A program made the position numbers and the translations under genes. 55,180 nt of DNA from Candidatus Kaiserbacteria bacterium (GTDB lineage Bacteria; Patescibacteriota; Minisyncoccia; Phycocordibacterales; UBA918): contig JACQKD010000007.1 of the NCBI GenBank assembly GCA_016204695.1, positions 1 through 55,180 of the forward strand, given 5' to 3'. The notes under the pieces are model-generated. The model saw nothing but the letters and a program-made list of their open reading frames with translations. It did not search any database and was not told the origin of the DNA. Shown one piece after another: positions 1,821-23,525 of the stretch. The number at the start of each line of letters is the position of its first letter. Position 1 is the first letter of the stretch.

Positions 1821-2917
1821 ATCGATTCTTGCTCGATGCTATCGCGTAAGGCCAGACCGATTGCCGTCGCATACCCATACGAATACCGCAGACTGATCGG
1901 GGGGACGGCCCCGGACGGCAAAAAAACATTGCGCCACACATCCACCCGCTCGGCCTCGATGCCAAGTGTCTCGGTGAGGTATTCGGGAAGCCCCGCCATA
2001 TTGACGCTACCGCCGCAGAGGATGATCTTCTCGATCTTCCGTTCGCCGGAGGAGGCATTGCGCGTATTCCAATAGACGAGACGCGTCGCAATCTCGTCCC
2101 GCAGGGCGGCTACCGGAGACAAAAGCGTCTCGTACACATCATCTTTTTTCCCGCTGGCAAGGAGGCCGCGCTCATTTTTGAGCTCGGTGATCGCGGCCTC
2201 GTCGAGATCGTTGAATTGCCGCCGGAGTACCTCGCTGAATTGCTGGCCGCCGATGTCGATCGTCGAGGTGTAGAGCAATGTCTGTTTCTCCACGATGCCG
2301 AGTCCGCTTCGTACCCTGCCGATGTCGAGGATCATGGAAACACCCTTCTCCGTGCGCGGCACTGCGGCCCGAGCGATGGCGTCCGCTTCGACTTCAAGTG
2401 AGAGCGCCATCAGCCGCGCTTTTTTGCATGCATCATAGTAGGTGAGAATCGTCTCTTTGGCATAGACGGCGACACCGATATGCAAGAGCTGGTCGTCGGT
2501 CTCGTCTTCCACAATTTCATAATCAAAAAACGCATCTTTCGGTGAAAGCGGCACGTTTTCTTCCATGCGAAACTCGAGCAAGTTGCGAATGTCTTTTTCG
2601 GGCGTCCCGCGCTTGATAGTCGTCTCAAACAGGTAGGCGCGCTCTTCCGGGAGTGAAACGCGAATGTACGGCGTACCGCACACGGCGCGAACTTTCTCAA
2701 GCGCCTCGACCAGTCCGCCCACCTCCGCGATAGTACCCCGCACGACCACGCCCGCAGGCAGGGGGATGTCTCCCCAGTGAACAAGCGTGCGCGAGGAATT
2801 CTCGGTGTGAAATTGCACATACTTCAGCGACGACTCGGAAATGTCGACGCCCACGCTCGGCAATGTCATAAAGCGCGGCGGCGGGAATATGGCGGCGATG
2901 CGCGAAAGTGCGAACAT
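1817..2917 (-). CDS. pilM: Type IV pilus assembly protein PilM (actin-like)
   Basis: VGVDISESSLKYV, ILDIG, IDIGG, IILCGG and AIGLALR motifs. Confidence 0.9.
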   Translation of the reverse strand: MFALSRIAAIFPPPRFMTLPSVGVDISESSLKYVQFHTENSSRTLVHWGDIPLPAGVVVRGTIAEVGGLVEALEKVRAVCGTPYIRVSLPEERAYLFETTIKRGTPEKDIRNLLEFRMEENVPLSPKDAFFDYEIVEDETDDQLLHIGVAVYAKETILTYYDACKKARLMALSLEVEADAIARAAVPRTEKGVSMILDIGRVRSGLGIVEKQTLLYTSTIDIGGQQFSEVLRRQFNDLDEAAITELKNERGLLASGKKDDVYETLLSPVAALRDEIATRLVYWNTRNASSGERKIEKIILCGGSVNMAGLPEYLTETLGIEAERVDVWRNVFLPSGAVPPISLRYSYGYATAIGLALRDSIEQESI

Positions 2918-2980
2918 GCGTACAGTATACGATGCGCGCCGCGCAAACGCAGTACGTAAAATGCACAGATGCGGCGCGCG

Positions 2981-3307
2981 CTAGATCACGCGCGTACCCG
3001 CAGGCAGGTCGTTCGACGGAAGCAGGAGTGCAAATGTATCTTCGTGATGCGCCGCAAGCAACATGCCTTCGCTTTCCAGACCGCGGATCGTGCGATGTGC
3101 AAGATTGGTGAGAAACGGGCACTTCTTTCCGACAAGCGCCTGCGGGTCTGCGAAGAACGTGCGAATGCCCGAAATAATCTGACGCGGCCGCTCCTCGCCG
3201 AAATCAACAGTGAGTCTCAGAAGTTTGTCCGCGCCGTCGACTACGTCGACGGCGCGTATCTCCCCTATCGTTATCTCCAGTTTTGCAAAATCGTCGTATG
3301 CAATCAT
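2981..3307 (-). CDS. tRNA-binding OB-fold protein (Trbp111/CsaA/MetG C-terminal family)
   Basis: DDFAKLEITIG, ADKLL, RQIISGI, NL...IRGLESEGMLLA motifs. Confidence 0.9.
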   Translation of the reverse strand: MIAYDDFAKLEITIGEIRAVDVVDGADKLLRLTVDFGEERPRQIISGIRTFFADPQALVGKKCPFLTNLAHRTIRGLESEGMLLAAHHEDTFALLLPSNDLPAGTRVI

Positions 3308-4527: not shown

Positions 4528-5730
4528 TCACTCTTCTTCACTTGTGCCGATGAGGCGTTCGGCGTTTTTGTGGGCGTACTTTTCTTGGACCGAGGGGTCG
4601 AGGCGGCCGATGAATGCGCGGGTGTAGTCGTTGAGCGCGATGGCGACGTCGAGGTCGAGCGACCACAGCGCGCTTCCCCCACGGTCGGTCCCCCAGAGCA
4701 CTTGGTCGGGATGCGCTTCGATAAAATCCTTCCACGTCGCCAAATCTTTTTTGAGGAGCGGCTCGTACTTTTCCAAATGGGTGAAGAATTTCTCTTTGGG
4801 GATGTCATGCCGCAGGAGCCACACGTCGCCATAGAGCTCGTCGACGCCGTAATACGCATTGGGATGGCGCTCCAGTATTTCGGCGATGTGCGATAGGTTT
4901 TGCTTGCCGCCTTCCCCGTACGGAATGAGTTGGTCGCCGTGCCAGATGAAATTGATATCGGGATTTGCCGAGAGGACTTTTTCAAAGCTCTCTTGCTGTC
5001 CTTGTCCCAAGTGGAAGTAGACCAGCAGTTTGTCTTTGCGCACCACCGGGTAAATGGCGAGCAGGCGCGAAGAGTCGGGAGGAAGCTCCGGTGCGCCAGT
5101 CGGGCCGCCGTGGTCGCCGCGCGCATAGAGACCTATCTCGCCATATCCTTTGAATAGACCGGGGACCACCTTGAGCATGTTTGAAAGTATGTCCGCCGTC
5201 ACCGTCGGGAAGCCGTCGGGACGGTCATCGCGGTCCGGCGGCATCAGAAACGGCACGAAACGGTCGGGATACCGCTCCATGGTCTTATCCACCACATCCA
5301 CGGATTCCGAAATAATCGGCTCCCACACCGGGAAAAAGGTGAACGCCTTGCTCGTACCCTCGGTATCCATCATGCAGACGTAATCCGCAATCGTGAGATT
5401 GACTCCGAGCGTCGGACGAAGCTCATCAGATGCAACGGGACCGTCCGGTATCGGCGCCATGTGGACGTGCGTGTCGACCATCGGCCCGAGATAGGACGAG
5501 CGGTACGGATGGCGTTCGGGCGGCGGCGGACAATTCGTCTCTTCCAAGGGTTTTCCAAGGGCGGCGGACACCCGGGTGTCCCAGACTTGCCCTATGACAA
5601 AAGACGCGTACGCCGACATGCGCCGTATCGCCTGCGCGTCCATCCTCCGCCACAGATGCACGCCGCCAAGAATAACCGCCACCACAAGCAATCCTCCAAG
5701 CACATACGCGCTTCGCCGATAGATACTCAT
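4528..5730 (-). CDS. Membrane-anchored amidohydrolase-family (TIM barrel) protein
   Basis: N-terminal TM, DTHVH metal motif, GYGEI, FH, WHG and WGTD motifs. Start reassigned to the ATG at 5730. Confidence 0.8.
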   Translation of the reverse strand: MSIYRRSAYVLGGLLVVAVILGGVHLWRRMDAQAIRRMSAYASFVIGQVWDTRVSAALGKPLEETNCPPPPERHPYRSSYLGPMVDTHVHMAPIPDGPVASDELRPTLGVNLTIADYVCMMDTEGTSKAFTFFPVWEPIISESVDVVDKTMERYPDRFVPFLMPPDRDDRPDGFPTVTADILSNMLKVVPGLFKGYGEIGLYARGDHGGPTGAPELPPDSSRLLAIYPVVRKDKLLVYFHLGQGQQESFEKVLSANPDINFIWHGDQLIPYGEGGKQNLSHIAEILERHPNAYYGVDELYGDVWLLRHDIPKEKFFTHLEKYEPLLKKDLATWKDFIEAHPDQVLWGTDRGGSALWSLDLDVAIALNDYTRAFIGRLDPSVQEKYAHKNAERLIGTSEEE

Positions 5731-5898
5731 GCGCCTATGGTAACGTGCGCTCGCGTCCTTGCCTATGCCCCGCAGTGCATATTCCGCCGCGATACGGAAG
5801 ACACTCTGGTATGCTTGTATGTGGGTTGTGTTGATTGTGTCAGATGTTGACACGTGATCGCGCCGACACAACCGCCGATCTGCCACCGACCGAATGAC

Positions 5899-6768
5899 AT
5901 GCCTCATTTCCTTGGAATATTATTTGCATTTGTCGCTCTGATCTCTTGGGGATTTGGAGATTTTTTCATACAGCAAACCATTCGAGCCATCGGGAGCTGG
6001 AAATCGCTCTTTTTTATCGGTGCGACCGGTTTCGTCGCGCTGTTCCCGTTTGTGTACGACGACCTGTTCGTCCTTGACGCGATGGATCTCCTTCTGCTTT
6101 GCGTACTTGGCATCGTAGTCCTCTTCACGACGCTCTTCGACTTCGAGGCGTTGCGCGAGGGAAAGATTGCCGTCGTCGAGCCGGTCATCGGACTCGAACT
6201 GCCGATCACCGTAGGCTTAAGCATGACCGTGGCGCGCGAATCGCTTTCCTTGTCGCAGATATTCGTCATCGGATTGATTTTTATCGGGATCATGTGTGCG
6301 ATCACCACTCATTGGACACATCTCCACCACAGACGAATGCTCGAAAAAGGGATCATTCTCGCCGGCATGGGCGCCATCGGCATGGCGCTTTGCAGTTTTC
6401 TTGTCGGTATCTCAAGCCGGAGCATATCGCCACTGGTCACCATTTGGTTTTCGCACTCGCTTTTGGCGGTCGTATGTATCGCGTATCTTGCCGCCGCGAA
6501 GGAGCTTCCGTCGCTCGTTTCGAGTATGCGGAAATATCCGAGATTGATCCTTAGTCAGAGCGTCCTCGACAACGCCGCATGGGTCGCATTCGCGACCGCG
6601 ACGACATTCGTCCCGATTGCGATCGCCGCAACCATCAGCGAGAGCTATGTCGCGCTTGCGGTACTGCTCGGTATCTTCGTCAATCGAGAGAAACTGAAAC
6701 CACACCAACTCGCGGGAATACTGCTTGCGGTGGCGGGCGCGATAGCACTCTCGTATATTTCCTCATAA
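5899..6768 (+). CDS. EamA/DMT family transporter
   Basis: About 10 TM in two repeats, WGFGDF and REKL motifs. Confidence 0.85.
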   Translation: MPHFLGILFAFVALISWGFGDFFIQQTIRAIGSWKSLFFIGATGFVALFPFVYDDLFVLDAMDLLLLCVLGIVVLFTTLFDFEALREGKIAVVEPVIGLELPITVGLSMTVARESLSLSQIFVIGLIFIGIMCAITTHWTHLHHRRMLEKGIILAGMGAIGMALCSFLVGISSRSISPLVTIWFSHSLLAVVCIAYLAAAKELPSLVSSMRKYPRLILSQSVLDNAAWVAFATATTFVPIAIAATISESYVALAVLLGIFVNREKLKPHQLAGILLAVAGAIALSYISS

Positions 6769-13121: not shown

Positions 13122-13460
13122 TCAGTCAATACACTCCTGATCCTCGACGGCAAAGATTCTGTACCTGGCACGATATGGGTCATATTCCTTTCTGTCCTCG
13201 GGTAGCTTGCGTAGCCTGTATGGTTTCCTCTCTACCTGCATAATCTTATTTACCCCACTAAGGACAGATGTCAGTGTTTTGAACCCAGAGAGACGCAGAA
13301 TCTCATATTCGCTCATCGGCCGATTGCCGTTTGTGCGGAAGACAGCGACTACATTTCGGAACCTCTCTGGAAACGGGTATTTCTCAATTTCTCTCCACTC
13401 GCCCTCGGTGATCACCCTGTCTGTTGATCTCGGCTTCACCGACATTCTCCCCTCCTTCAC
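13122..13460 (-). CDS. Hypothetical basic protein, possibly winged-helix
   Basis: 4-nt overlap with the pheA stop; RPMSEYEILRLSG…TSVLSGVNKIM resembles a helix-turn-helix. The fold is inference only. Confidence 0.6.
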   Translation of the reverse strand: MKEGRMSVKPRSTDRVITEGEWREIEKYPFPERFRNVVAVFRTNGNRPMSEYEILRLSGFKTLTSVLSGVNKIMQVERKPYRLRKLPEDRKEYDPYRARYRIFAVEDQECID

Positions 13461-14380
13461 TCTATGATCGCCTCGTTTAGAAACGAGCCAAGTACGATCA
13501 TCCGCTTGCTCATAGCGGCAAGTAACGTGAAGATCGCATTCATGACACGTGGATTTTTATGCACATCCATCTCTATGCAGAACACTACGCGATTGTCCGC
13601 ACCTCCGAGCGGAATTTGTGGAGCATATCGAACATTCACCTTGAGCGCCGCCATGGGGCTCAAGATGTCATGAAGGACGCCCGCCTCGTTCCGGTCAGGC
13701 CACAACAACACGGCAACCCCCGATCCAAAATCGTTTTGGACTATGCGATGTCCTTTCACCACAAGGTAAAAGTGCGTGTAATTTTCTTTGACATCCGCTA
13801 CATCGTCCACGAGCGGCGTCAAATTGTACAGCCCGGCGCAAAAGCGAGACGCGATCGCAGCGCGCGACGGATCTTGGATTTCCGCAACAGACTGTGCGGC
13901 GCCGGAAGTACTGGACATTGGCTCCAGTGAGGCGTCAGGAAGAATGCGCCGAAGCATTCGAGCGCACTGCCCCAGGGCCTGTCCGTGCGAGACCACCGTC
14001 TTGATGTCACTCAATTGCACCGAAGGATCACAAGCGAAGAGCTGATGCCTGATACGCAATGTAACCTTACCCACGACATGAAATGTCTCCTCCGAAACAA
14101 AAGAAGGCTGGGTGGATAGGTAGTACTTCTCATGACTCGGTCCTCTCATGAGATAGCGCATCACACCAGCCACGTATCCCTCAACTGTGTTGTAAACCGG
14201 GACGATACCCATTGGCAAATCAGCTTCACCGCTACCGTTTTCAATCTCAGCAAGCACATCCTGATTGTCTTTCACAAACTCAATTTCTACAGTTCCATGG
14301 AAGACGTTTGCGTTTAGCCATTGAGCTACACAATCTCCGTAGGATCCTCCCGGCCCCAAACACACTAATTTGCGACTCAT
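13457..14380 (-). CDS. pheA: Prephenate dehydratase (PDT + ACT), divergent
   Basis: LGPGGSY, PVYNTVEG, SHGQALGQC, STSGAA, AAIAS, NYTHF, C-terminal ACT ending LGSF; Phe-rich leader upstream. Confidence 0.88.
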   Translation of the reverse strand: MSRKLVCLGPGGSYGDCVAQWLNANVFHGTVEIEFVKDNQDVLAEIENGSGEADLPMGIVPVYNTVEGYVAGVMRYLMRGPSHEKYYLSTQPSFVSEETFHVVGKVTLRIRHQLFACDPSVQLSDIKTVVSHGQALGQCARMLRRILPDASLEPMSSTSGAAQSVAEIQDPSRAAIASRFCAGLYNLTPLVDDVADVKENYTHFYLVVKGHRIVQNDFGSGVAVLLWPDRNEAGVLHDILSPMAALKVNVRYAPQIPLGGADNRVVFCIEMDVHKNPRVMNAIFTLLAAMSKRMIVLGSFLNEAIIE

Positions 14381-14687: not shown

Positions 14688-15008
14688 TTATTTTGCGTAG
14701 GGATACACCGCCGACCCCACGAGAGACGGGTCTTCAATCGCGGTAGACTGCCCACTGCAGGAAACGATCCTGCGGACTTTTTGTGTTAAGTCTTCGACAA
14801 CTCCACTGTCGAAGTCTCTGCCTACAAATACCTTTCTGGCAGCCAATCGAGCCCACGGGCCTCTCCCCCTCTTGGTGAAAAAGGCCACGGACCCCTTCGG
14901 GGCCACTTCGTCTGGCTGAAGCCAGCGAATGTGACATCCTACCCTTTGAGCTGCGGCGAGAATGGACCTAATAGCAGAAAGATCGTTCTGGGTAGCAACA
15001 ACTAACAT
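14688..15008 (-). CDS. Hypothetical 106-aa protein downstream of the Leu/Val attenuator
   Basis: AGGAGG 6 nt before the ATG at 15008 (alternative ATG at 15032); hairpin at 14603-14650 downstream. Confidence 0.6.
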   Translation of the reverse strand: MLVVATQNDLSAIRSILAAAQRVGCHIRWLQPDEVAPKGSVAFFTKRGRGPWARLAARKVFVGRDFDSGVVEDLTQKVRRIVSCSGQSTAIEDPSLVGSAVYPYAK

Positions 15009-15153
15009 CGTCAGCCTCCTTATCGGATACATGGACGCCCTGCCTTCACGCAGATACCATTTCAACCCAGCATCAGCGAGGCGGCAAAATAAGCGTCGGA
15101 ACGCCGACCTCACCGCCTCGCTGATGCATTTTGTGGAAAGAACTGAAGAACAA

Positions 15154-15190
15154 ACGAAAATCGACCTCCCAAAGGAAGGCCGATTTTCGT
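15154..15190 (-). terminator. Attenuator terminator of the Leu/Val leader
   Basis: Minus strand: acgaaaatcggccttcc-ttt-gggaggtcgattttcgt followed by ttgttctt. Confidence 0.8.
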
Positions 15191-15206
15191 CGTATGCTTC
15201 TACTAT

Positions 15207-15302
15207 CTATGAAAACATACGAGAACCAGCCTTCCTTTCAAGAAGGACTAGTCCTAGCACGAGAAGCTGGCTCTGTTGCCGACTTACTTCTATCGTTTTC
15301 AT
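15207..15302 (-). CDS. Leu/Val-rich leader peptide MKTIEVSRQQSQLLVLGLVLLERKAGSRMFS
   Basis: ATG 7 nt after TTGACA-16-TACTAT; LLVLGLVLL with two CTA codons; antiterminator and terminator pairings present. Confidence 0.8.
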   Translation of the reverse strand: MKTIEVSRQQSQLLVLGLVLLERKAGSRMFS

Positions 15303-15368
15303 ACAGAGTATAGTATGCCGACGCAAAAATATGTCAAGCAACCCGGACTCGGAATAGGAAAAGCAGCT

Positions 15369-15575
15369 CTAGGGAGAGCTGCTCGAGGTGGCGTCATAGG
15401 TGACTTCGACAAAACTATACATCTCCGGCGGGAACTCTGTCATTCCCGTCAGGCGATCCCAGGTCAGACGCTCAAAGTAAAGCTGCTCGTATTCAGCCTG
15501 AGTGGGACGTCTGTAGTGTCGTGCCGGACTCTGACTTTTGCAACTGTTCTCCGCTACTACTAAAGGAACTGGCAT
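15369..15575 (-). CDS. Hypothetical 68-aa protein downstream of the Ile attenuator
   Basis: Purine-rich RBS (gagggag) before the ATG at 15575; hairpin agcagctct/agagctgct plus U-run overlaps the stop. Confidence 0.5.
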   Translation of the reverse strand: MPVPLVVAENSCKSQSPARHYRRPTQAEYEQLYFERLTWDRLTGMTEFPPEMYSFVEVTYDATSSSSP

Positions 15576-15626
15576 CGTTCTTCTCCCTCTTCTTTGAAGA
15601 GCAATATGTCCTGTAACACCGCACAA

Positions 15627-15660
15627 AAGAAAAACTCCTCTTGGCAGAGGAGTTTTTCTT
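15627..15660 (-). terminator. Attenuator terminator of the Ile leader
   Basis: Minus strand: aagaaaaactcctct-gcca-agaggagtttttctt followed by ttgt. Confidence 0.85.
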
Positions 15661-15688
15661 GAGGAAACTGGAATCTAGTCGCGCGCCA

Positions 15689-15760
15689 TCAAGCAAACTC
15701 CTCGAGAGAGGAGATAATAATCGCAATGATGGCGCCCGTCAGATGTTGTTGCGATGTCAC
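15689..15760 (-). CDS. Ile-rich leader peptide MTSQQHLTGAIIAIIISSLEEFA
   Basis: GTG 6 nt after TTGACC-18-TAATAT; 5 Ile in 6 codons; GAGGAGTTT in the leader can pair with the terminator 5' arm. Confidence 0.8.
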   Translation of the reverse strand: MTSQQHLTGAIIAIIISSLEEFA

Positions 15761-15804
15761 ATCCTTATATTAAACGAGAATGTCCCACTTGGTCAAGTTG
15801 CGAG

Positions 15805-15856
15805 AAATAAAAACGATGCACTCGTAGCTCAAAGGGCAACATAGAGTGCACCGTTT
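15805..15856 (-). terminator. Terminator closing the Phe/Tyr cassette
   Basis: Minus strand: aaacggtgcactc…gagtgcatcgttt followed by ttattt. Confidence 0.65.
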
Positions 15857-15864
15857 CAAGTGGA

Positions 15865-15969
15865 CTATTGCCCACTTGGCCGCGCCGGGGGTGGCGCAGG
15901 CTTCTGGGTTCCGGACCCTTTCCCTTCTGCAGGGGGGATGGGGTCCGAACCTGTGTAACCCAGCACCAT
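15865..15969 (-). CDS. 34-aa Pro-rich small ORF MVLGYTGSDPIPPAEGKGSGTQKPAPPPARPSGQ
   Basis: AAGGAG 5 nt before the ATG; the only RBS-bearing ORF between the attenuator and the closing terminator. Confidence 0.4.
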   Translation of the reverse strand: MVLGYTGSDPIPPAEGKGSGTQKPAPPPARPSGQ

Positions 15970-16073
15970 AAGAACTCCTTTCTCAAGACCGCCACCATGA
16001 CGGCCTCCAGAGAACCTCGTTGTCCTCTGGCATCGAGGCGGGGTGTTCCCTGCGCGCGATGCCAAGTGACAAA

Positions 16074-16106
16074 CGAAAACTCCTCTCGGAGTGAGAGGAG
16101 TTGTCG
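16074..16106 (-). terminator. Attenuator terminator of the Phe/Tyr leader
   Basis: Minus strand: cgacaactcctctc-actcc-gagaggagttttcg followed by tttgt. Confidence 0.8.
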
Positions 16107-16122
16107 GGTGTGTTCTGTCTTT

Positions 16123-16221
16123 TCAGGCCTTTGCCATACTGACCGCACCGATCCAACTCCTCTTACTAAAGAAGTAATAGAAGGCAAAGAAATAAATGGC
16201 AACGGTCACAATGTAATGCAT
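16123..16221 (-). CDS. Phe/Tyr-rich leader peptide MHYIVTVAIYFFAFYYFFSKRSWIGAVSMAKA
   Basis: Promoter TTGACA (16262-16257)-17-TAGTGT; YFFAFYYFF; AGAGGAGTTG in the leader complements CAACTCCTCT of the terminator. Confidence 0.82.
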   Translation of the reverse strand: MHYIVTVAIYFFAFYYFFSKRSWIGAVSMAKA

Positions 16222-16258
16222 GATGTCGATGTAACACTATACCCACCCCCACACGTTG

Positions 16259-17053
16259 TCAATCGGCACCGGTGAGTTGCTTCACCTGTGCGGATATGTT
16301 CTGGAGCAAGCGTTTTTTATTCGAAAGATTATCGGTGATGGTCTTGACGAGCGCACTGCCGACAATGGCGCCATCCGCTCCCTGTTTTTCGAGAAGCGCA
16401 ATATGTTCCCTCTTTGAAATGCCGAAGCCCACGGCAAGCGGCAAGTCGGTCTGTCGCCGTATTCGTTTCAAAAGCTTGGGCATGTCCGCAGAAAGGGACG
16501 CCCGTGCGCCGGTGACGCCGAGCACGGATACAACATACAGATACCCTTTTGCGTAACGGAGAATTTTTTTGAGCCGCTCGGGAGTCGTAGTGTGCGCCAC
16601 GAGAAAGATGGGGTCGATGCCGGCCTTTGCCGCCGCCTGCGCGAACGGTTCTATTTCCTCCACCGGCACGTCGGGGATAAGCACGCCGTCGACGCCTGCG
16701 GCTTTCGCTTCTGTATAAAATCGCTCGATTCCTTTCTGGTAAACGATATTCGCGTAGACGAGCACGGTGATCGGTACGTCGGTGGACTCGCGAACTTTTT
16801 TGATGTATGTGAAGACGTGATCAGTGTCCATCCCGGCGCCGAGCGCGCGAATATCGGCGGCCTGGATCGTCGGGCCGTCCGCGAGCGGATCGGAATACGG
16901 GAATCCTATTTCCAAAAGATCAGCGGGCGACGCGATCGTTTTTGCAATCGATACGCTCGTTTCGAGGTCGGGATCTCCCGCAACGAGAAACGGCATGAAC
17001 GCGATCCTGCCTTCGGCTCTCGTCTCTTTGAATTTCTGCTCTAGCCGTGTCAT
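16259..17053 (-). CDS. trpA: Tryptophan synthase alpha subunit
   Basis: [36 protein letters not shown]. Confidence 0.97.
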
Positions 17054-18225
17054 AGGGATTGTGCGCGAGTGACGGTTTCGAGGTCTTTGTCCCCTCGTCC
17101 CGAAAGATTGATAACGACGATCTTATTTTTCGGCAGACGCTTTGCGAGCGCGTAGCCGTAGGCGACCGCGTGTGAAGATTCGAGCGCGGGAATGATGCCC
17201 TCGGTTTCACAGAGGAGCGAAAACGCTTCGAGCGCTTGTTTGTCCGTCACGGAGACATACTCCGCCCGCCCGATTTCTCGGAGAAAGCTGTGCTCGGGAC
17301 CGACGCTCGGATAATCAAGCCCCGCCGAGACACTATGCGTCTCTTTGATCTGGCCGAATTTGTCTTGGAGTACAAACGATTTGGTCCCGTGGAGAATACC
17401 GACCCTGCCTCCGGCAAAACGTGCGGCGTGTTTGCCGGAGGCGATACCAAGCCCTCCGGCTTCGACGCCGATCATCTGCACTTTCTTGTCTTTGAGAAAC
17501 GGATAAAAAAGTCCGATCGCATTGCTTCCGCCGCCGACGCAGGCGACAAGATAGTCCGGAGGGCGTTTTTCTCTTTTGAGGATATCGCGTCGCGCTTCCT
17601 CGCCGATCACTTTCTGAAAATTGCGGATCATCTGCGGGTAGGGGTATGGGCCGAGCACCGATCCGAGAAGATAGTGCGTGGTATTGATGTTGGTAATCCA
17701 GTCGCGGAGCGCTTCGTTGATTGCGTCTTTGAGCGTCTTTGATCCCGAAGAGACCGGCACGACCTCGGCTCCCAGGAGCTTCATCCGAAGGACGTTTGGC
17801 TTCTGGCGCTCCATATCCACCTCTCCCATGTATACGACGCATTCCAAGCCGAATTTCGCCGCAACCGTCGCAGTCGCCACACCATGCTGGCCCGCACCGG
17901 TCTCGGCGATGATGCGCGACTTCCCCATGAAGCGCGCAAGGAGCACCTGCCCCACGGCGTTATTGATCTTGTGCGCGCCCGTGTGCGTGAGGTCTTCGCG
18001 CTTGAGGTATATTTTCGCGCCGCCGGCTTTTTTGGTCAGCCGCTCGGCAAAATAAAGCGGGGTCGGCCGTCCGGCAAACTCATGCAGATGCCGCGCAAGC
18101 TCCGCCCTACACTTCTTATCGCGAGAAAATTTCCCGTATGCGCGCTCAAGCTCTTCAAGCGCGCTCATCAGCGTCTCCGGCACGAACTGCCCCCCGAATT
18201 CTCCAAAATATCCTTTTTTATCCAT
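17050..18225 (-). CDS. trpB: Tryptophan synthase beta subunit
   Basis: [15 protein letters not shown] (PLP Lys), [39 protein letters not shown]. Confidence 0.98.
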
Positions 18226-19084
18226 GTCGATCAGTCTTTTTCCGATAATATTCGTCGTTCGTAATGACTTTTATGGACTCTTCCTGTGCGGTGGAGATAA
18301 TAGTTTGCATCTCTTTCTCGGAACTACGCCCTCCTACAATCATCCCCATGACCGTGCCTGCAAATACATCCCCGGCATTGATGGGATCAAGCGGCCGGAC
18401 CACGCGGGCAAGAGGAAACATCCGACTCTCCGCAGGCGTTATGACTTCAATGCCGGAAGTGCCTTTTGTTTTAAAGATGTACTGCAGATTTTTGCAGTGC
18501 TCAAAAAGATCTTCTCCAATTTTGTCTGTCATATATTCGTACTCCTCCGCATTGGTGAAGAGGTGCGTTGCCGCTTTGACCAAGTCGATCGCATACTGCT
18601 CGTTATGCTTGAGGTGGTACAGAAGCGTATTGACCGCAACGACTTCGGGACATTGCATTTGTTTCAGTACTGCAAGCCCAAGTCGCGGATTCGAGCCGCT
18701 GAACAGGATGTTCTTCGACTTTTTCACCTGCTTCGTGGACAGCACAGGGCTATACGACCCGTAGACGCCGAACGCTATCTCTTCTCCTGACAGTTCAAAG
18801 GTGTCCGGGTCATAGGTGGATTGATAATAAAAACTCTCGCCTTCCATCTGCTCGACATTTTCTATGTGTACGGACGGCCCGAGGGCGCGCGCCAAGTCTT
18901 CGCGCGGCATGTCGGTCCCGATGACGCCGATTAGATCTACTTGCACGTGTTTGGCGGCCGCAAGGCTCGCGAGCGCGCCGTTGCCGCCAATGTATACGGG
19001 CGAGTACTCGGCACCGGCAAATCGGGACCTGCAAAACTCTATGGTTCCGAAAATCGTCAGTGACGTTGTGGTAAAAGATTCCAT
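18218..19084 (-). CDS. PfkB/ribokinase-family carbohydrate kinase
   Basis: GGNGA…IGVIGTD N-terminal signature, [18 protein letters not shown] anion-hole motif; overlaps the trpB start by 8 nt. Confidence 0.85.
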
Positions 19085-19191
19085 GTGTAATTGTGATTAG
19101 TATGAAAAAGGGTTACGGGCGGCGGATGGGCACAGTACCGCCCGCCACACCTCCCTCACCCTGTGACTTTGTTTGTAGTGTACCGTACCCC

Positions 19192-20007
19192 TCAATCCCC
19201 CACCAACTCCTCTAAGCTCTCAATGAATGTGAGCGCCGGAAATCTGGTCCTGAACTCGACCTGTCTCTCCGGGTTGATGATGATGCCAGTCACGTCATGG
19301 CACATATCCACCAAGAGACAGTCCGTCATGCTATCGCCGATATATATGATCGGCGATCCAGTCTCCAATCTTCTCGCAGTCTGCACTCTCTGGGCGGCAA
19401 GATAGACCGAGAATGGATGCGGCTTTGCCAGGTAACCGCGAGTGTAACCGTGCTCCGCCTCTTCTTGCTCAATGGTTTCACTGCCAACCACCAAATGTGC
19501 AGGAAAGATGTCACTTATTGCGCTTCTCGCGATAACTTGATGAACAAATCGTTCCGGACTGGCACTGGCGATCCCGCACACTATTCGCTTCTGTCTCATG
19601 TAGGCCAGAAGCGTATCAAGACCGGGGATTGGCGCGGGCAAATCTGCTTCAATCGACCGGTAAAGGAAGTCCCTCCGCATCGAGACGCAGAGACCAATCT
19701 GCTTTTCCGTGGACGAACCAGAAGACCTCCTGCCCAACTCGGTCAGCATTGATGGGAGACTTGGCATTTCGTGGGCGACATCAACATGTGCCGTCCCTCG
19801 AGCGATTGCAAGCAAGATGTGAAAAACTTCCCAATCACTCTTCCCTCGCAACAACGGCACAAAGCTTCGCGGGATAGGATCGCACACTCCCAACCCCTCC
19901 AGGACCGAATCAAACGAACTACGGTGGCGACGTGACGTATCGAACATTGTTTGGTCGAAATCAAAAACCAACACAGACCCTGTTCCTAAGTCCCTTAGTG
20001 ATCTCAT
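19192..20007 (-). CDS. HAD-superfamily phosphatase
   Basis: Motif I FDFDQT, motif II ASAS, KPHP, GDSMTD; AGGAGG RBS. Confidence 0.85.
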   Translation of the reverse strand: MRSLRDLGTGSVLVFDFDQTMFDTSRRHRSSFDSVLEGLGVCDPIPRSFVPLLRGKSDWEVFHILLAIARGTAHVDVAHEMPSLPSMLTELGRRSSGSSTEKQIGLCVSMRRDFLYRSIEADLPAPIPGLDTLLAYMRQKRIVCGIASASPERFVHQVIARSAISDIFPAHLVVGSETIEQEEAEHGYTRGYLAKPHPFSVYLAAQRVQTARRLETGSPIIYIGDSMTDCLLVDMCHDVTGIIINPERQVEFRTRFPALTFIESLEELVGD

Positions 20008-20145
20008 GATATCGTCCTCCTGCTTGTGGTTGTAATCAGCACAAAATTTTTGAAGAACTCAATCAAAAGAACCGTGTTTGTGCTGGTGTGTAGGATCTTT
20101 TCTAAAAGCCCACACACCAGCACAAACTGAAGCAATACGTCTGGG

Positions 20146-20937
20146 TCAACACCAGCCGGACTGCTTCAACTCCTGTATTTTCTGCAGGGGATCTTGAGAC
20201 TTGATGATCGAGGTGCCGACGAGTATGCCCCGCACACCAAGTCCGGTAAGCTCTCGGACATCTTCGGCAGTATTGATCCCCGATTCGCTCACCACTATCT
20301 TGTCTTTCGGAATGAGCCGCATCAGATCCCTCGTTGTTTGCAGGTCTACCGTAAGTGTCTGGAGGTTACGATTGTTGATACCTATAATCTCGGCATCTGC
20401 CTCAAGTGTCCGAGCAAGCTCATCCGCGTCGTGAACCTCAACGATACTAGCGAGACCGAGCGACCTTCCGAGAGACAAAAATTCTTTCAGCTCGGTCGCG
20501 GTGAGCAGAGAAGCCATGAGCAGAAACGCATCTGCCCGGGCCAGGAACGTCTCGTAGATTTGGTAGGCGTCAATGATGAAATCTTTTCTAAAGATCGGCT
20601 GTGGAGCAATGTCTTTTACATCTTTGAGATAGAGCAAATCACCGTCGAAATACGTCCGGTCCGTGAGTACCGAAACAGCGTCAGCACCGCTCTCCGCGTA
20701 GAGTCGGGCAATCTGTCGATGATCAAGACTGGTCAGCCGCCCCTCGGAGGGGGATTTAATTTTTATCTCCGCAATAAGGGCGACTCCTTCCATACCGAAG
20801 ATGTCTTTGAAGGGTCGAATTTCCCTTTTCCCCGTGAGTGCGGTCGACGTTCGTTCAATCTCACAAAGAGACATCTTCGATTTCGATTCATCGATTTCTT
20901 TCTTTTTTGTCGATATGACTTGTTTTAGGAAATTCAT
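20146..20937 (-). CDS. trpC: Indole-3-glycerol-phosphate synthase
   Basis: IAEIKIKSPSEG, SVLTD, RKDFIIDAYQI, VEVH, GINNRNL, SESGI. True start at MNFLKQ (20937); no fused TrpF. Confidence 0.96.
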   Translation of the reverse strand: MNFLKQVISTKKKEIDESKSKMSLCEIERTSTALTGKREIRPFKDIFGMEGVALIAEIKIKSPSEGRLTSLDHRQIARLYAESGADAVSVLTDRTYFDGDLLYLKDVKDIAPQPIFRKDFIIDAYQIYETFLARADAFLLMASLLTATELKEFLSLGRSLGLASIVEVHDADELARTLEADAEIIGINNRNLQTLTVDLQTTRDLMRLIPKDKIVVSESGINTAEDVRELTGLGVRGILVGTSIIKSQDPLQKIQELKQSGWC

Positions 20938-20965
20938 GGTGATAGTGATGGTAGATACTGCACAA

Positions 20966-21004
20966 ACAAAAACTTCTCCCGCAAAGTCCGGGAGAAGTTT
21001 TTGT
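20966..21004 (-). terminator. Attenuator terminator of the Trp leader
   Basis: Minus strand: acaaaaacttctcccg-gactttg-cgggagaagtttttgt followed by ttgt. Confidence 0.88.
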
Positions 21005-21023
21005 GGCTGGTGTCTGGGAGATA

Positions 21024-21107
21024 TCAAGCCAACGCGAAAATCGGACTTTGCAGAGAAGTTTGCAAGGCCCACCAGTTCAACGAAATTGCGCGTCGGTTTG
21101 ATTTCAT
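21024..21107 (-). CDS. trpL: TrpL-like leader peptide MKSNRRAISLNWWALQTSLQSPIFALA
   Basis: Tandem TGG TGG; promoter TTGACA-17-TACCGT (21148-21120); terminator between it and trpC. Confidence 0.88.
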   Translation of the reverse strand: MKSNRRAISLNWWALQTSLQSPIFALA

Positions 21108-21154
21108 ATGTTCACGAGTACGGTAACAAATGTGGATTTCGCTGTCAACCAAAG

Positions 21155-23325
<2,171 letters not shown>

Positions 23326-23417
23326 ACGGTGCATCAAGAACTATATTCCAATAATACACAGACTCCCCGTCCGCAACAGACCAAAAATGTGTTTGGGAAG
23401 CTGTGTTTTGTCGCGGC

Positions 23418-23445
23418 ATTATACGTCATTTCCCCGTATCGTCAA
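23418..23445 (-). promoter_or_regulatory. Sigma70-type promoter of groESL
   Basis: TTGACG-16-TATAAT on the minus strand. Confidence 0.7.
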
Positions 23446-23525
23446 AATAACTGTCGCGGTTTAAAAAACGAGGACCGAGGTGGTAACGAGCCGACTGGCT
23501 CTCCCTCGGTCTTTGGTGACACATG

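Follow-up and report, generated by a model that had tools for sequence, protein, structure and literature searches.

A PfkB-family kinase and a HAD-superfamily protein in a Kaiserbacteria tryptophan operon: a candidate route into tryptophan synthesis upstream of TrpC

Few biosynthetic routes are regarded as being as invariant as the one that leads from anthranilate to tryptophan. We know of no alternative to TrpD, and to our knowledge only PriA substitutes for TrpF. Partial trp operons occur in Chlamydiaceae, where trpR-BA uses indole and trpDCFBA-kynU-prsA uses kynurenine. Within the ribokinase superfamily, kinases for ribosides and Amadori compounds exist, i.e., aminoimidazole riboside kinase and FrlD. 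Here, we describe a trp operon of Candidatus Kaiserbacteria bacterium (assembly GCA_016204695.1) that lies in a stretch of 55,180 nucleotides of contig JACQKD010000007.1, in the following called the window. Its five genes are all encoded on the minus strand in the order trpC-HAD-pfkB-trpB-trpA, with a trpL-like leader upstream of trpC (Table 1). We consider it very probable that the kinase and the HAD protein work in tryptophan synthesis upstream of TrpC, because the regulation of the operon, a synteny that persists while the gene order is shuffled, gene fusions in both directions, the shared ancestry of the cassette and the lack of TrpE, TrpD and TrpF in six genomes all point the same way.

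The gene order, including the overlap of pfkB and trpB, had been put forward by an original prediction made from the letters of the window, and profile matches bear it out. TrpC, TrpB and TrpA exceed the cut-offs of their models (NF001377, 284.3 vs. 260 bits; TIGR00263, 632.6 vs. 392.45; TIGR00262, 310.5 vs. 102.35), and the overlaps amount to 8 nt between pfkB and trpB and 4 nt between trpB and trpA. The reading frame of trpC is open from 21072, yet the Pfam model of indole-3-glycerol-phosphate synthase begins at its residue 49, and a start at the ATG at 20940 agrees with the homologues. Assembled contigs from two sequencing runs cover 15500-21269 and 15500-20958 with 0 differences; this agreement is not an independent one, because the runs may be the source samples.

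The predicted trpL proved real as well. The leader open reading frame (ORF) of 27 codons at 21107-21024 sits between the groEL stop (21155) and trpC and encodes MKSNRRAISLNWWALQTSLQSPIFALA, with tandem TGG (Trp-Trp) codons at 21074-21069. It is followed by a hairpin with a stem of 16-19 bp, a 7-nt loop and a T-run, which ends about 20 nt short of the trpC ATG. The RNA fold of 20938-21112 reaches -56.9 kcal/mol (z=-5.5), a stability attained by none of 200 shuffles. The terminator hairpin is kept in every constrained fold, ribosome-mask constraints included, and the alternative, in which a leader segment pairs over a long stretch with the 3' arm of the terminator, arises only when the 5' arm is blocked. 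That is, a short ORF with tandem Trp codons is followed by an intrinsic terminator ahead of the first structural gene, which, judged from sequence and fold, is how a trp leader-peptide attenuator is built. An Rfam scan of 15000-23500 returned chance-level miRNA/ctRNA matches only and no T-box or other leader family. At the other end, a terminator-like hairpin about 155 nt past the trpA stop is the probable end of the operon, and a single tryptophan-regulated operon is the best explanation for the five genes. A further hairpin (20076-20127, minus strand) falls between trpC and the HAD gene, which lie 138 nt apart; it gives chance-level miRNA-model matches (28 bits, E=0.021) and may be a structural element within the transcript of the operon.

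With regard to the kinase, score, motifs and predicted fold place the protein in the PfkB/ribokinase family. The PF00294 score is marginal (27.4 bits vs. the gathering cut-off of 25.8), while relatives reach 34-54 bits. The motif set of PfkB proteins comprises a GG dipeptide, NxxE and a C-terminal (G/A)xGD that carries the catalytic Asp. Among 24 sequences of the kinase family, G33, G34, E181 (of NxxE) and A237-G238-D239 are invariant, and N236 is near-invariant (at least 90% of the sequences); the N of NxxE varies. The family has invariant residues of its own, i.e., N35, F85, Y91, FGV 105-107 and YH 156-157. The AlphaFold2 model (pLDDT 93.1) matches nucleoside kinases and ribokinases with a Foldseek probability of 1.00 and TM values of 0.7-0.8. 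The best-matching structures are two nucleoside kinases, 3kd6 (Foldseek E=7e-21, profile E=1e-22) and 2c49 (Foldseek E=8.5e-18, profile E=5.5e-12), at an identity of 17-20%; ribokinases and adenosine kinases come next.

No NCBIfam cut-off is reached by the kinase itself or by 12 representatives picked from 150 listed; the ribokinase equivalog TIGR02152 gives 31.2 bits at a cut-off of 299.65, and the FrlD model NF007321 gives no match at E<=0.01. When the family profile is compared with E. coli proteins by hhalign, RbsK is found with E=4e-4 over 236 columns, FrlD with E=0.035 over 71 columns and Pfk-2 with nothing meaningful. The analogy to FrlD drawn in the original prediction is therefore a chemical one only, the nearest structures being those of nucleoside kinases. 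In the alignment with RbsK, residues N35, L38 and N132 of the kinase stand at the positions of K43, N46 and E143, and N14 and D16 of RbsK are not alignable; we take these five RbsK residues to be its ribose ligands.

The second protein scores 43.4 bits on HAD_2 (cut-off 23.8) and carries the motif residues D15, D17 and T19 (DxDxT), S150, K195, and D225 and D229 (GDxxxD). S150, K195, D225 and D229 are invariant in 9 sequences; motif I is conserved without being invariant, and P0027 lacks that region. The AlphaFold2 model (pLDDT 90.7) gives fold matches with probability 1.00, the nearest folds being beta-phosphoglucomutase, CbbY, YniC, HDHD1A and BT2127. By motifs and modelled fold, the protein is thus assigned to the phosphotransferases of the HAD superfamily. 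It stays below every curated cut-off, e.g., with 20.9 bits on the beta-phosphoglucomutase equivalog TIGR01990 (cut-off 189.4) and 35 bits on the PGMB-YQAB subfamily (cut-off 153), and an ESM Atlas search returned generic HAD and phosphoglycolate-phosphatase clusters only. A role as phosphoserine phosphatase was considered and rejected: NCBIfam SerB gives no match, and SerC has 0 matches in the whole genome (12/14 control genomes positive).

TrpC itself looks orthodox. Residues E58, K60, K119, E168, N189, R191, S220 and G242 are invariant with canonical TrpC of the candidate phyla radiation (CPR); no residue common to the canonical proteins is lost, and this includes the phosphate-binding end. 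A phosphorylated substrate, i.e., the 5-phosphate 1-(o-carboxyphenylamino)-1-deoxyribulose 5-phosphate (CdRP), should therefore still be required. Given their intact motifs, we read the kinase, the HAD protein and TrpC as active enzymes.

To place the operon in its host, six-frame profile searches were applied to the whole genome assembly (835,313 bases, rated 95.76% complete). The original prediction had noted that trpE, trpG, trpD and trpF are missing from the window. For TrpE (PF00425), TrpD (PF00591) and TrpF (PF00697) this holds with 0 matches in the window and in the whole genome; TrpG was not searched. Chorismate synthase and PRPP (phosphoribosyl pyrophosphate) synthase (PF13793) likewise have 0 matches in the whole genome, which also holds no member of the PNP-type (PNP_UDP_1) and NP-II families of nucleoside phosphorylases; the searches for TrpE, TrpD, TrpF, chorismate synthase, PRPP synthase and PNP are positive in 14/14 control genomes. 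The host is accordingly predicted to be unable to make anthranilate and, apparently, PRPP as well. Without PRPP synthase and without the two phosphorylase families, the host must obtain its nucleotides by other kinds of salvage. A pentose-phosphate cluster encodes GAPDH, RpiB, Rpe, a split transketolase, an ordinary PfkB kinase and a 2-hydroxyacid dehydrogenase, and since RpiB, Rpe and transketolase are present, ribose-5-phosphate is available.

Three ways around the gap were considered and rejected. A replacement of TrpF by HisA/PriA finds no fitting His_biosynth match in the genome, the sole ones being TrpA itself and a 19-bit match in a DHO_dh-family protein. The formation of a ribosyl-anthranilate by a nucleoside phosphorylase fails on the lack of any PNP_UDP_1 or NP-II member. 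Finally, CdRP could be thought to arise from ribulose 1,5-bisphosphate and anthranilate, but RuBisCO has 0 matches in the whole genome (controls positive in only 5/14 genomes), and we see no plausible chemistry by which a HAD phosphotransferase would do this.

The kinase family is small. Among proteins of 158-504 aa in a collection of 5.8 billion, 24 are found at E<=1e-3. When 1.84 billion representatives were searched exhaustively with the profile, 20 reached E<=1e-30, and what follows them are generic PfkB proteins of about 120 bits or less; this search also recovered fusions of 537-552 aa that the length-limited searches had missed, and a separate search for longer homologues among proteins of 556-2000 aa found none. 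Among 401 sampled genomes of the phylum, 6 matches reach E<=1e-25, and only the one in the window's own genome is a family member (454 bits), the other 5 scoring 91-108 bits and being taken as generic PfkB. For the 151 sampled genomes of the order of G001, the family is found in G001 alone.

Scans of genomes and metagenome contigs gave 12 loci. L006 repeats L001, L010 repeats L004, and L011 was left out as an ordinary PfkB kinase (107.7 bits on PF00294), such that 10 distinct loci remain together with the window. TrpC adjoins the kinase or is fused to it in 9/10, while the tenth (L002) begins inside the kinase gene. The HAD gene is adjoining in 7/10 (window, L001, L003, L004, L007, L008, L012), and TrpB-TrpA come next wherever the contig continues, which is not the case for L005, L009 and L002. 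The gene order varies from lineage to lineage, i.e., TrpC-HAD-kinase-TrpB-TrpA in the window, kinase-TrpC-HAD-TrpB-TrpA in the Levybacteria type, which is the commonest order, and a TrpC::kinase fusion followed by HAD in Saccharibacteria. In-frame fusions occur in four loci: TrpC::kinase in L004 (551 aa), kinase::TrpC in L007 (3405-5078; 558 aa) and L012, and TrpF::kinase in L009 (495 aa). Further kinase::TrpC fusions are seen in the representative proteins P0029 and P0030 and the divergent P0046, some of which may duplicate loci. The linkage of pfkB and trp genes, fusions included, is hence kept far beyond chance across genomes.

In L004, shikimate and Phe/Tyr genes precede the module, and a Trp repressor (TrpR) gene lies directly ahead of it, which, like the leader in the window, speaks for regulation by tryptophan. 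A class-I W/Y tRNA-synthetase gene, presumably TrpRS, lies directly 3' of trpA in Levybacteria (L001:11485-12462) and Saccharibacteria (L045:2399-3472) and is seen in L001 and G004. Locus L009 differs from the others, as TrpD stands before the TrpF::kinase fusion and TrpC after it, with no HAD gene alongside. A divergent ORF resembling D-2-hydroxyacid dehydrogenases (L009:3159-4007, plus strand; 29 bits on 2-Hacid_dh_C, no NCBIfam name) lies 3' of this TrpC and runs off the contig end. In L003, the HAD gene is split across two overlapping frames (2544-3276; 114 and 132 aa), which is a frameshift or an assembly error.

In a tree of TrpC proteins, 10 of the 12 module TrpCs group together (support 90/90) across genomes labelled Kaiserbacteria, Levybacteria, Saccharibacteria and Micrarchaeota, with L009 inside the group; P0046 and L012 pair with each other apart from it, again with good support. 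This grouping regardless of host lineage fits a cassette spread by horizontal transfer. The transfer apparently reached DPANN archaea too: L005 (genome G005) and L003 (G003), both titled Candidatus Micrarchaeota, carry the kinase-TrpC module, and L005 encodes an aIF5B-type domain set (GTP_EFTU, IF-2, GTP_EFTU_D4), from which we infer an archaeal host. Together, this suggests that the cassette has moved between CPR bacteria and DPANN archaea.

Tryptophan genes are uncommon in CPR, as the original prediction had stated, with TrpC above the cut-off in 25/401 sampled genomes of the phylum. In one set of groundwater Patescibacteria metagenome-assembled genomes, trpA and trpB are reported for 15% and 18%, and the available part of that article makes no mention of the kinase (PMC8672522). 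In other CPR TrpC loci, TrpD and/or TrpF flank TrpC or are fused to it in 8/9 (e.g., G-D-C-F-B, TrpD::TrpC, TrpD::TrpC::TrpF). When the commonest module order is set against these canonical loci, the kinase holds the slot of TrpD and the HAD gene that of TrpF.

We also compared five other species genomes with the module (G001-G005), titled Levybacteria, Patescibacteria, Saccharibacteria and, twice, Micrarchaeota, for which no completeness is given. Including the window's genome, TrpE and TrpF are found in 0/6 and TrpA in 6/6. The lone PF00591 match (in G001) is no TrpD, as it proves AMP/thymidine-phosphorylase-like (4ga4, 4e-81).

As a result, our favoured reading, to which we assign a probability of about 0.5 to 0.55, is that the kinase phosphorylates an unphosphorylated adduct of anthranilate and a pentose. 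That is, the substrate would be 1-(o-carboxyphenylamino)-1-deoxyribulose (CdR) and/or N-ribosylanthranilate, and the product CdRP or phosphoribosylanthranilate (PRA). The repeated fusion to TrpC suggests that the product of the kinase is the substrate of TrpC, especially in genomes without TrpF and, for G005, apparently without HAD; this would make the protein a 5-kinase for CdR, the dephospho form of CdRP. The TrpF::kinase fusion and a fold like that of nucleoside kinases would agree with a ribosylamine substrate that leads to PRA, but the isomerase step would then lack an explanation elsewhere. The proposal of the original prediction, a kinase that re-phosphorylates scavenged CdR or indole-3-glycerol, thus stands in part: re-phosphorylation of an unphosphorylated intermediate upstream of TrpC is the best reading, while indole-3-glycerol is an unlikely substrate, given that TrpC is always kept, is often fused to the kinase and has its catalytic and phosphate-binding residues intact. 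Similarly, the placement of the kinase instead of the missing trp genes agrees with the absence of TrpE, TrpD and TrpF here but not with L009, where the fusion to TrpF beside TrpD makes the kinase an extra entry point rather than strictly a replacement.

In this favoured reading, the operon would make tryptophan from imported anthranilate or from an adduct of anthranilate and a pentose. Neither anthranilate synthase nor TrpD and TrpF would be needed, and in this genome PRPP would not be needed either. Both CdR and CdRP can be obtained chemically by Amadori rearrangement from anthranilate and ribose or ribose-5-phosphate. Ribose and anthranilate would spontaneously form N-ribosylanthranilate and, by a presumed Amadori step, CdR. 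The kinase would then use ATP to phosphorylate the terminal hydroxyl of CdR and/or N-ribosylanthranilate, which would render the condensation-rearrangement sequence irreversible, and TrpC, TrpA and TrpB would convert the resulting CdRP to tryptophan. The HAD protein, to which the original prediction gave no role, would most likely act before the kinase, either by freeing ribose from ribose-5-phosphate or by supplying the dephosphorylated adduct. Our guess that it generates the unphosphorylated substrate of the kinase, e.g., free ribose, is suggested by its presence where TrpD and TrpF are absent and its lack beside them in L009, a single case. A more far-reaching version, in which HAD and kinase form a complete PRPP-independent, non-homologous bypass of TrpD and TrpF, with condensation and rearrangement occurring non-enzymatically or on one of these proteins, and with the whole being a mobile CPR-DPANN cassette, is tentative, and we would expect it to fail rather than to hold.

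Several observations weigh against the favoured reading. Nothing in the sequence identifies CdR as the substrate, and the nearest relatives of the kinase act on ribofuranosides, the best solved match being an uncharacterised 'nucleoside kinase'. A phosphatase and a kinase for the same type of compound in one operon look futile. The HAD family is found in G001, G003 and G004 and was not found in G002 and G005 (their completeness not being given), such that HAD may not be essential. Lack of PRPP is ruled out as the general reason for the module, since PRPP synthase is present in 4/5 of the other module genomes (G001-G004) and absent only from G005 and the window's genome. L009 retains TrpD and TrpF along with the kinase. 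If PRA were the product, no isomerase is known in the module genomes to take it further. Spontaneous condensation and Amadori rearrangement may be too slow in vivo. Concerning regulation, no antiterminator structure was resolved in the constrained folds of the leader.

Among the alternatives, a phosphate shuffle in the style of HldE and GmhB would start from the sugar instead of the adduct. The kinase would phosphorylate a pentose phosphate, e.g., ribose-5-phosphate at C1 or ribose-1-phosphate at C5, and the HAD protein would remove or move the other phosphate, which yields an activated ribosyl donor in place of PRPP from which anthranilate displaces the anomeric phosphate. Such pairs of a PfkB kinase and a HAD phosphatase are known in HldE and GmhB, the HAD protein resembles beta-phosphoglucomutase and CbbY, whose kind handles sugar bisphosphates, and conserved basic residues (R19 and R21 in the kinase lid, LRGK in the HAD cap) could hold a second anionic group. 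The scheme would also account for the position of the pair in the TrpD/TrpF slots and for a genome without PRPP synthase. However, no enzyme for forming the C-N bond or for the Amadori step is present (no NP-II, PNP, TrpF or HisA), HAD chemistry moves phosphoryl rather than glycosyl groups, and the kinase-TrpC fusions suggest a kinase product that is already the TrpC substrate. We therefore regard the shuffle as unlikely.

Equally, the kinase might serve supply only, as a divergent kinase of ribose or another pentose that increases the ribose-5-phosphate pool, with CdRP formed from ribose-5-phosphate and anthranilate non-enzymatically or, where present, via PRPP and TrpD, and with HAD as a general sugar-phosphate or phosphoserine phosphatase. 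Chlamydial trp operons do include a PRPP synthase gene as a supply enzyme, RbsK is the closest of the three E. coli PfkB enzymes compared, and L009 has the kinase alongside TrpD and TrpF. An equivalog score of about 31 bits against 299.65 and the exchange of the ribose ligands of RbsK (K43 to N35, N46 to L38, E143 to N132) nevertheless speak against a ribokinase, another PfkB kinase is already encoded in the pentose-phosphate cluster, and phosphoserine is not made here, as SerC is missing. A housekeeping role would also leave unexplained why fusion to TrpC recurs and why the family is almost confined to the side of TrpC, so we think this explanation improbable, too. That kinase and HAD are mere hitch-hikers without a role in tryptophan synthesis, next to a trpC-trpBA set that is decaying or used for indole only, has a precedent in the indole-only partial operons of, e.g., genital Chlamydia trachomatis but is hardly credible, since all ORFs are intact with conserved catalytic residues, the module is kept across distant lineages with fusions and Trp-responsive regulation, and an indole-only user has no need of TrpC or TrpA.

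Two observations concern other parts of the window. At 13457-14380 (minus strand), a lone prephenate dehydratase with ACT domain (PF00800, 130 bits) and without a chorismate mutase domain is encoded in this genome without chorismate synthase; it may be a second case of late-intermediate salvage, i.e., from prephenate or arogenate to Phe. At 4531-5907 (minus strand), a 459-aa Amidohydro_2 protein (Pfam 38.7 bits, no NCBIfam name) adjoins an EamA-family transporter gene (5854-6765, plus strand); we take the Amidohydro_2 family to include aromatic-acid decarboxylases.

Table 1. Coordinates of the operon features in the window.
Feature	Position	Strand	Evidence
trpC, indole-3-glycerol-phosphate synthase	20146-20940	-	264 aa from ATG 20940; PF00218 249 bits, NF001377 284.3 bits
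HAD-superfamily phosphatase/phosphomutase (putative), large C1 cap	19192-20007	-	271 aa; HAD_2 43 bits
Divergent PfkB/ribokinase-family kinase (predicted)	18218-19084	-	288 aa; PF00294 27.4 bits
trpB, tryptophan synthase beta, TrpB1 type	17050-18225	-	TIGR00263 632.6 bits
trpA, tryptophan synthase alpha	16259-17053	-	TIGR00262 310.5 bits
trpL-like leader ORF, 27 codons + stop	21024-21107	-	sequence and translation
Terminator/attenuator hairpin + T-run	~20961-21004	-	RNA fold
Terminator-like hairpin, 10-bp stem + T-rich tail	16078-16102	-	pattern scan, consensus match only

The protein families involved are known, while their trp-operon context and the functions it implies are new; searches of full-text literature, with subscription journals not covered, gave no account of the module, of trp operons that include a gene for a PfkB or HAD protein, or of a CdR kinase. 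If the proposed bypass is true, the middle of an otherwise universal tryptophan pathway would for the first time be seen replaced by a non-homologous route that does without PRPP. If a kinase that is often fused to TrpC stands in for TrpD and TrpF together with a phosphatase, two new enzyme functions would be defined, and the module would account for tryptophan synthesis from a scavenged precursor in some ultra-small symbionts. At present, module genomes are rated in metabolic reconstructions as having an 'incomplete Trp pathway', a call that would need correcting.

Finally, we relate the locus to the described systems. With regard to the single proteins, the best matches of the trp-linked kinase in structure and sequence are the nucleoside kinases 3kd6 of Chlorobium tepidum and 2c49 of M. 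jannaschii (MjNK), from which its family differs by an identity of 17-20% only and by invariant residues of its own. The aminoimidazole riboside kinase of Salmonella (STM4066) and FrlD share with it the PfkB fold and motifs as well as the logic of re-phosphorylating a dephospho intermediate or an Amadori compound; FrlD, however, shows no specific homology to the kinase, and STM4066 is set beside it by its function only. The HAD protein has the fold and the four catalytic motifs of beta-phosphoglucomutase, CbbY (xylulose-1,5-bisphosphate phosphatase) and YniC/HxpB, and its cap motif LRGKSD resembles the LKGVSR of beta-phosphoglucomutase. In contrast to these HAD-IA enzymes with C1 cap, its cap is larger, and the trp-operon context is unique to its family.

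Compared to the canonical trp operon (trpE-G-D-C-F-B-A), TrpC, TrpB and TrpA of the module are orthodox, the tandem-Trp leader fits the classical scheme, and a fusion of TrpC to an operon neighbour (TrpD::TrpC) is found there also. The difference is a host genome without TrpE, TrpD and TrpF and a PfkB kinase and a HAD protein in the positions of TrpD and TrpF. The likeness to the Chlamydiaceae lies in a reduced genome that keeps the distal pathway only, a scavenged precursor and supply genes inside the operon. There, however, entry is by TrpD/TrpF with PRPP or by indole, while the entry proposed here would be between anthranilate and CdRP, via the kinase.

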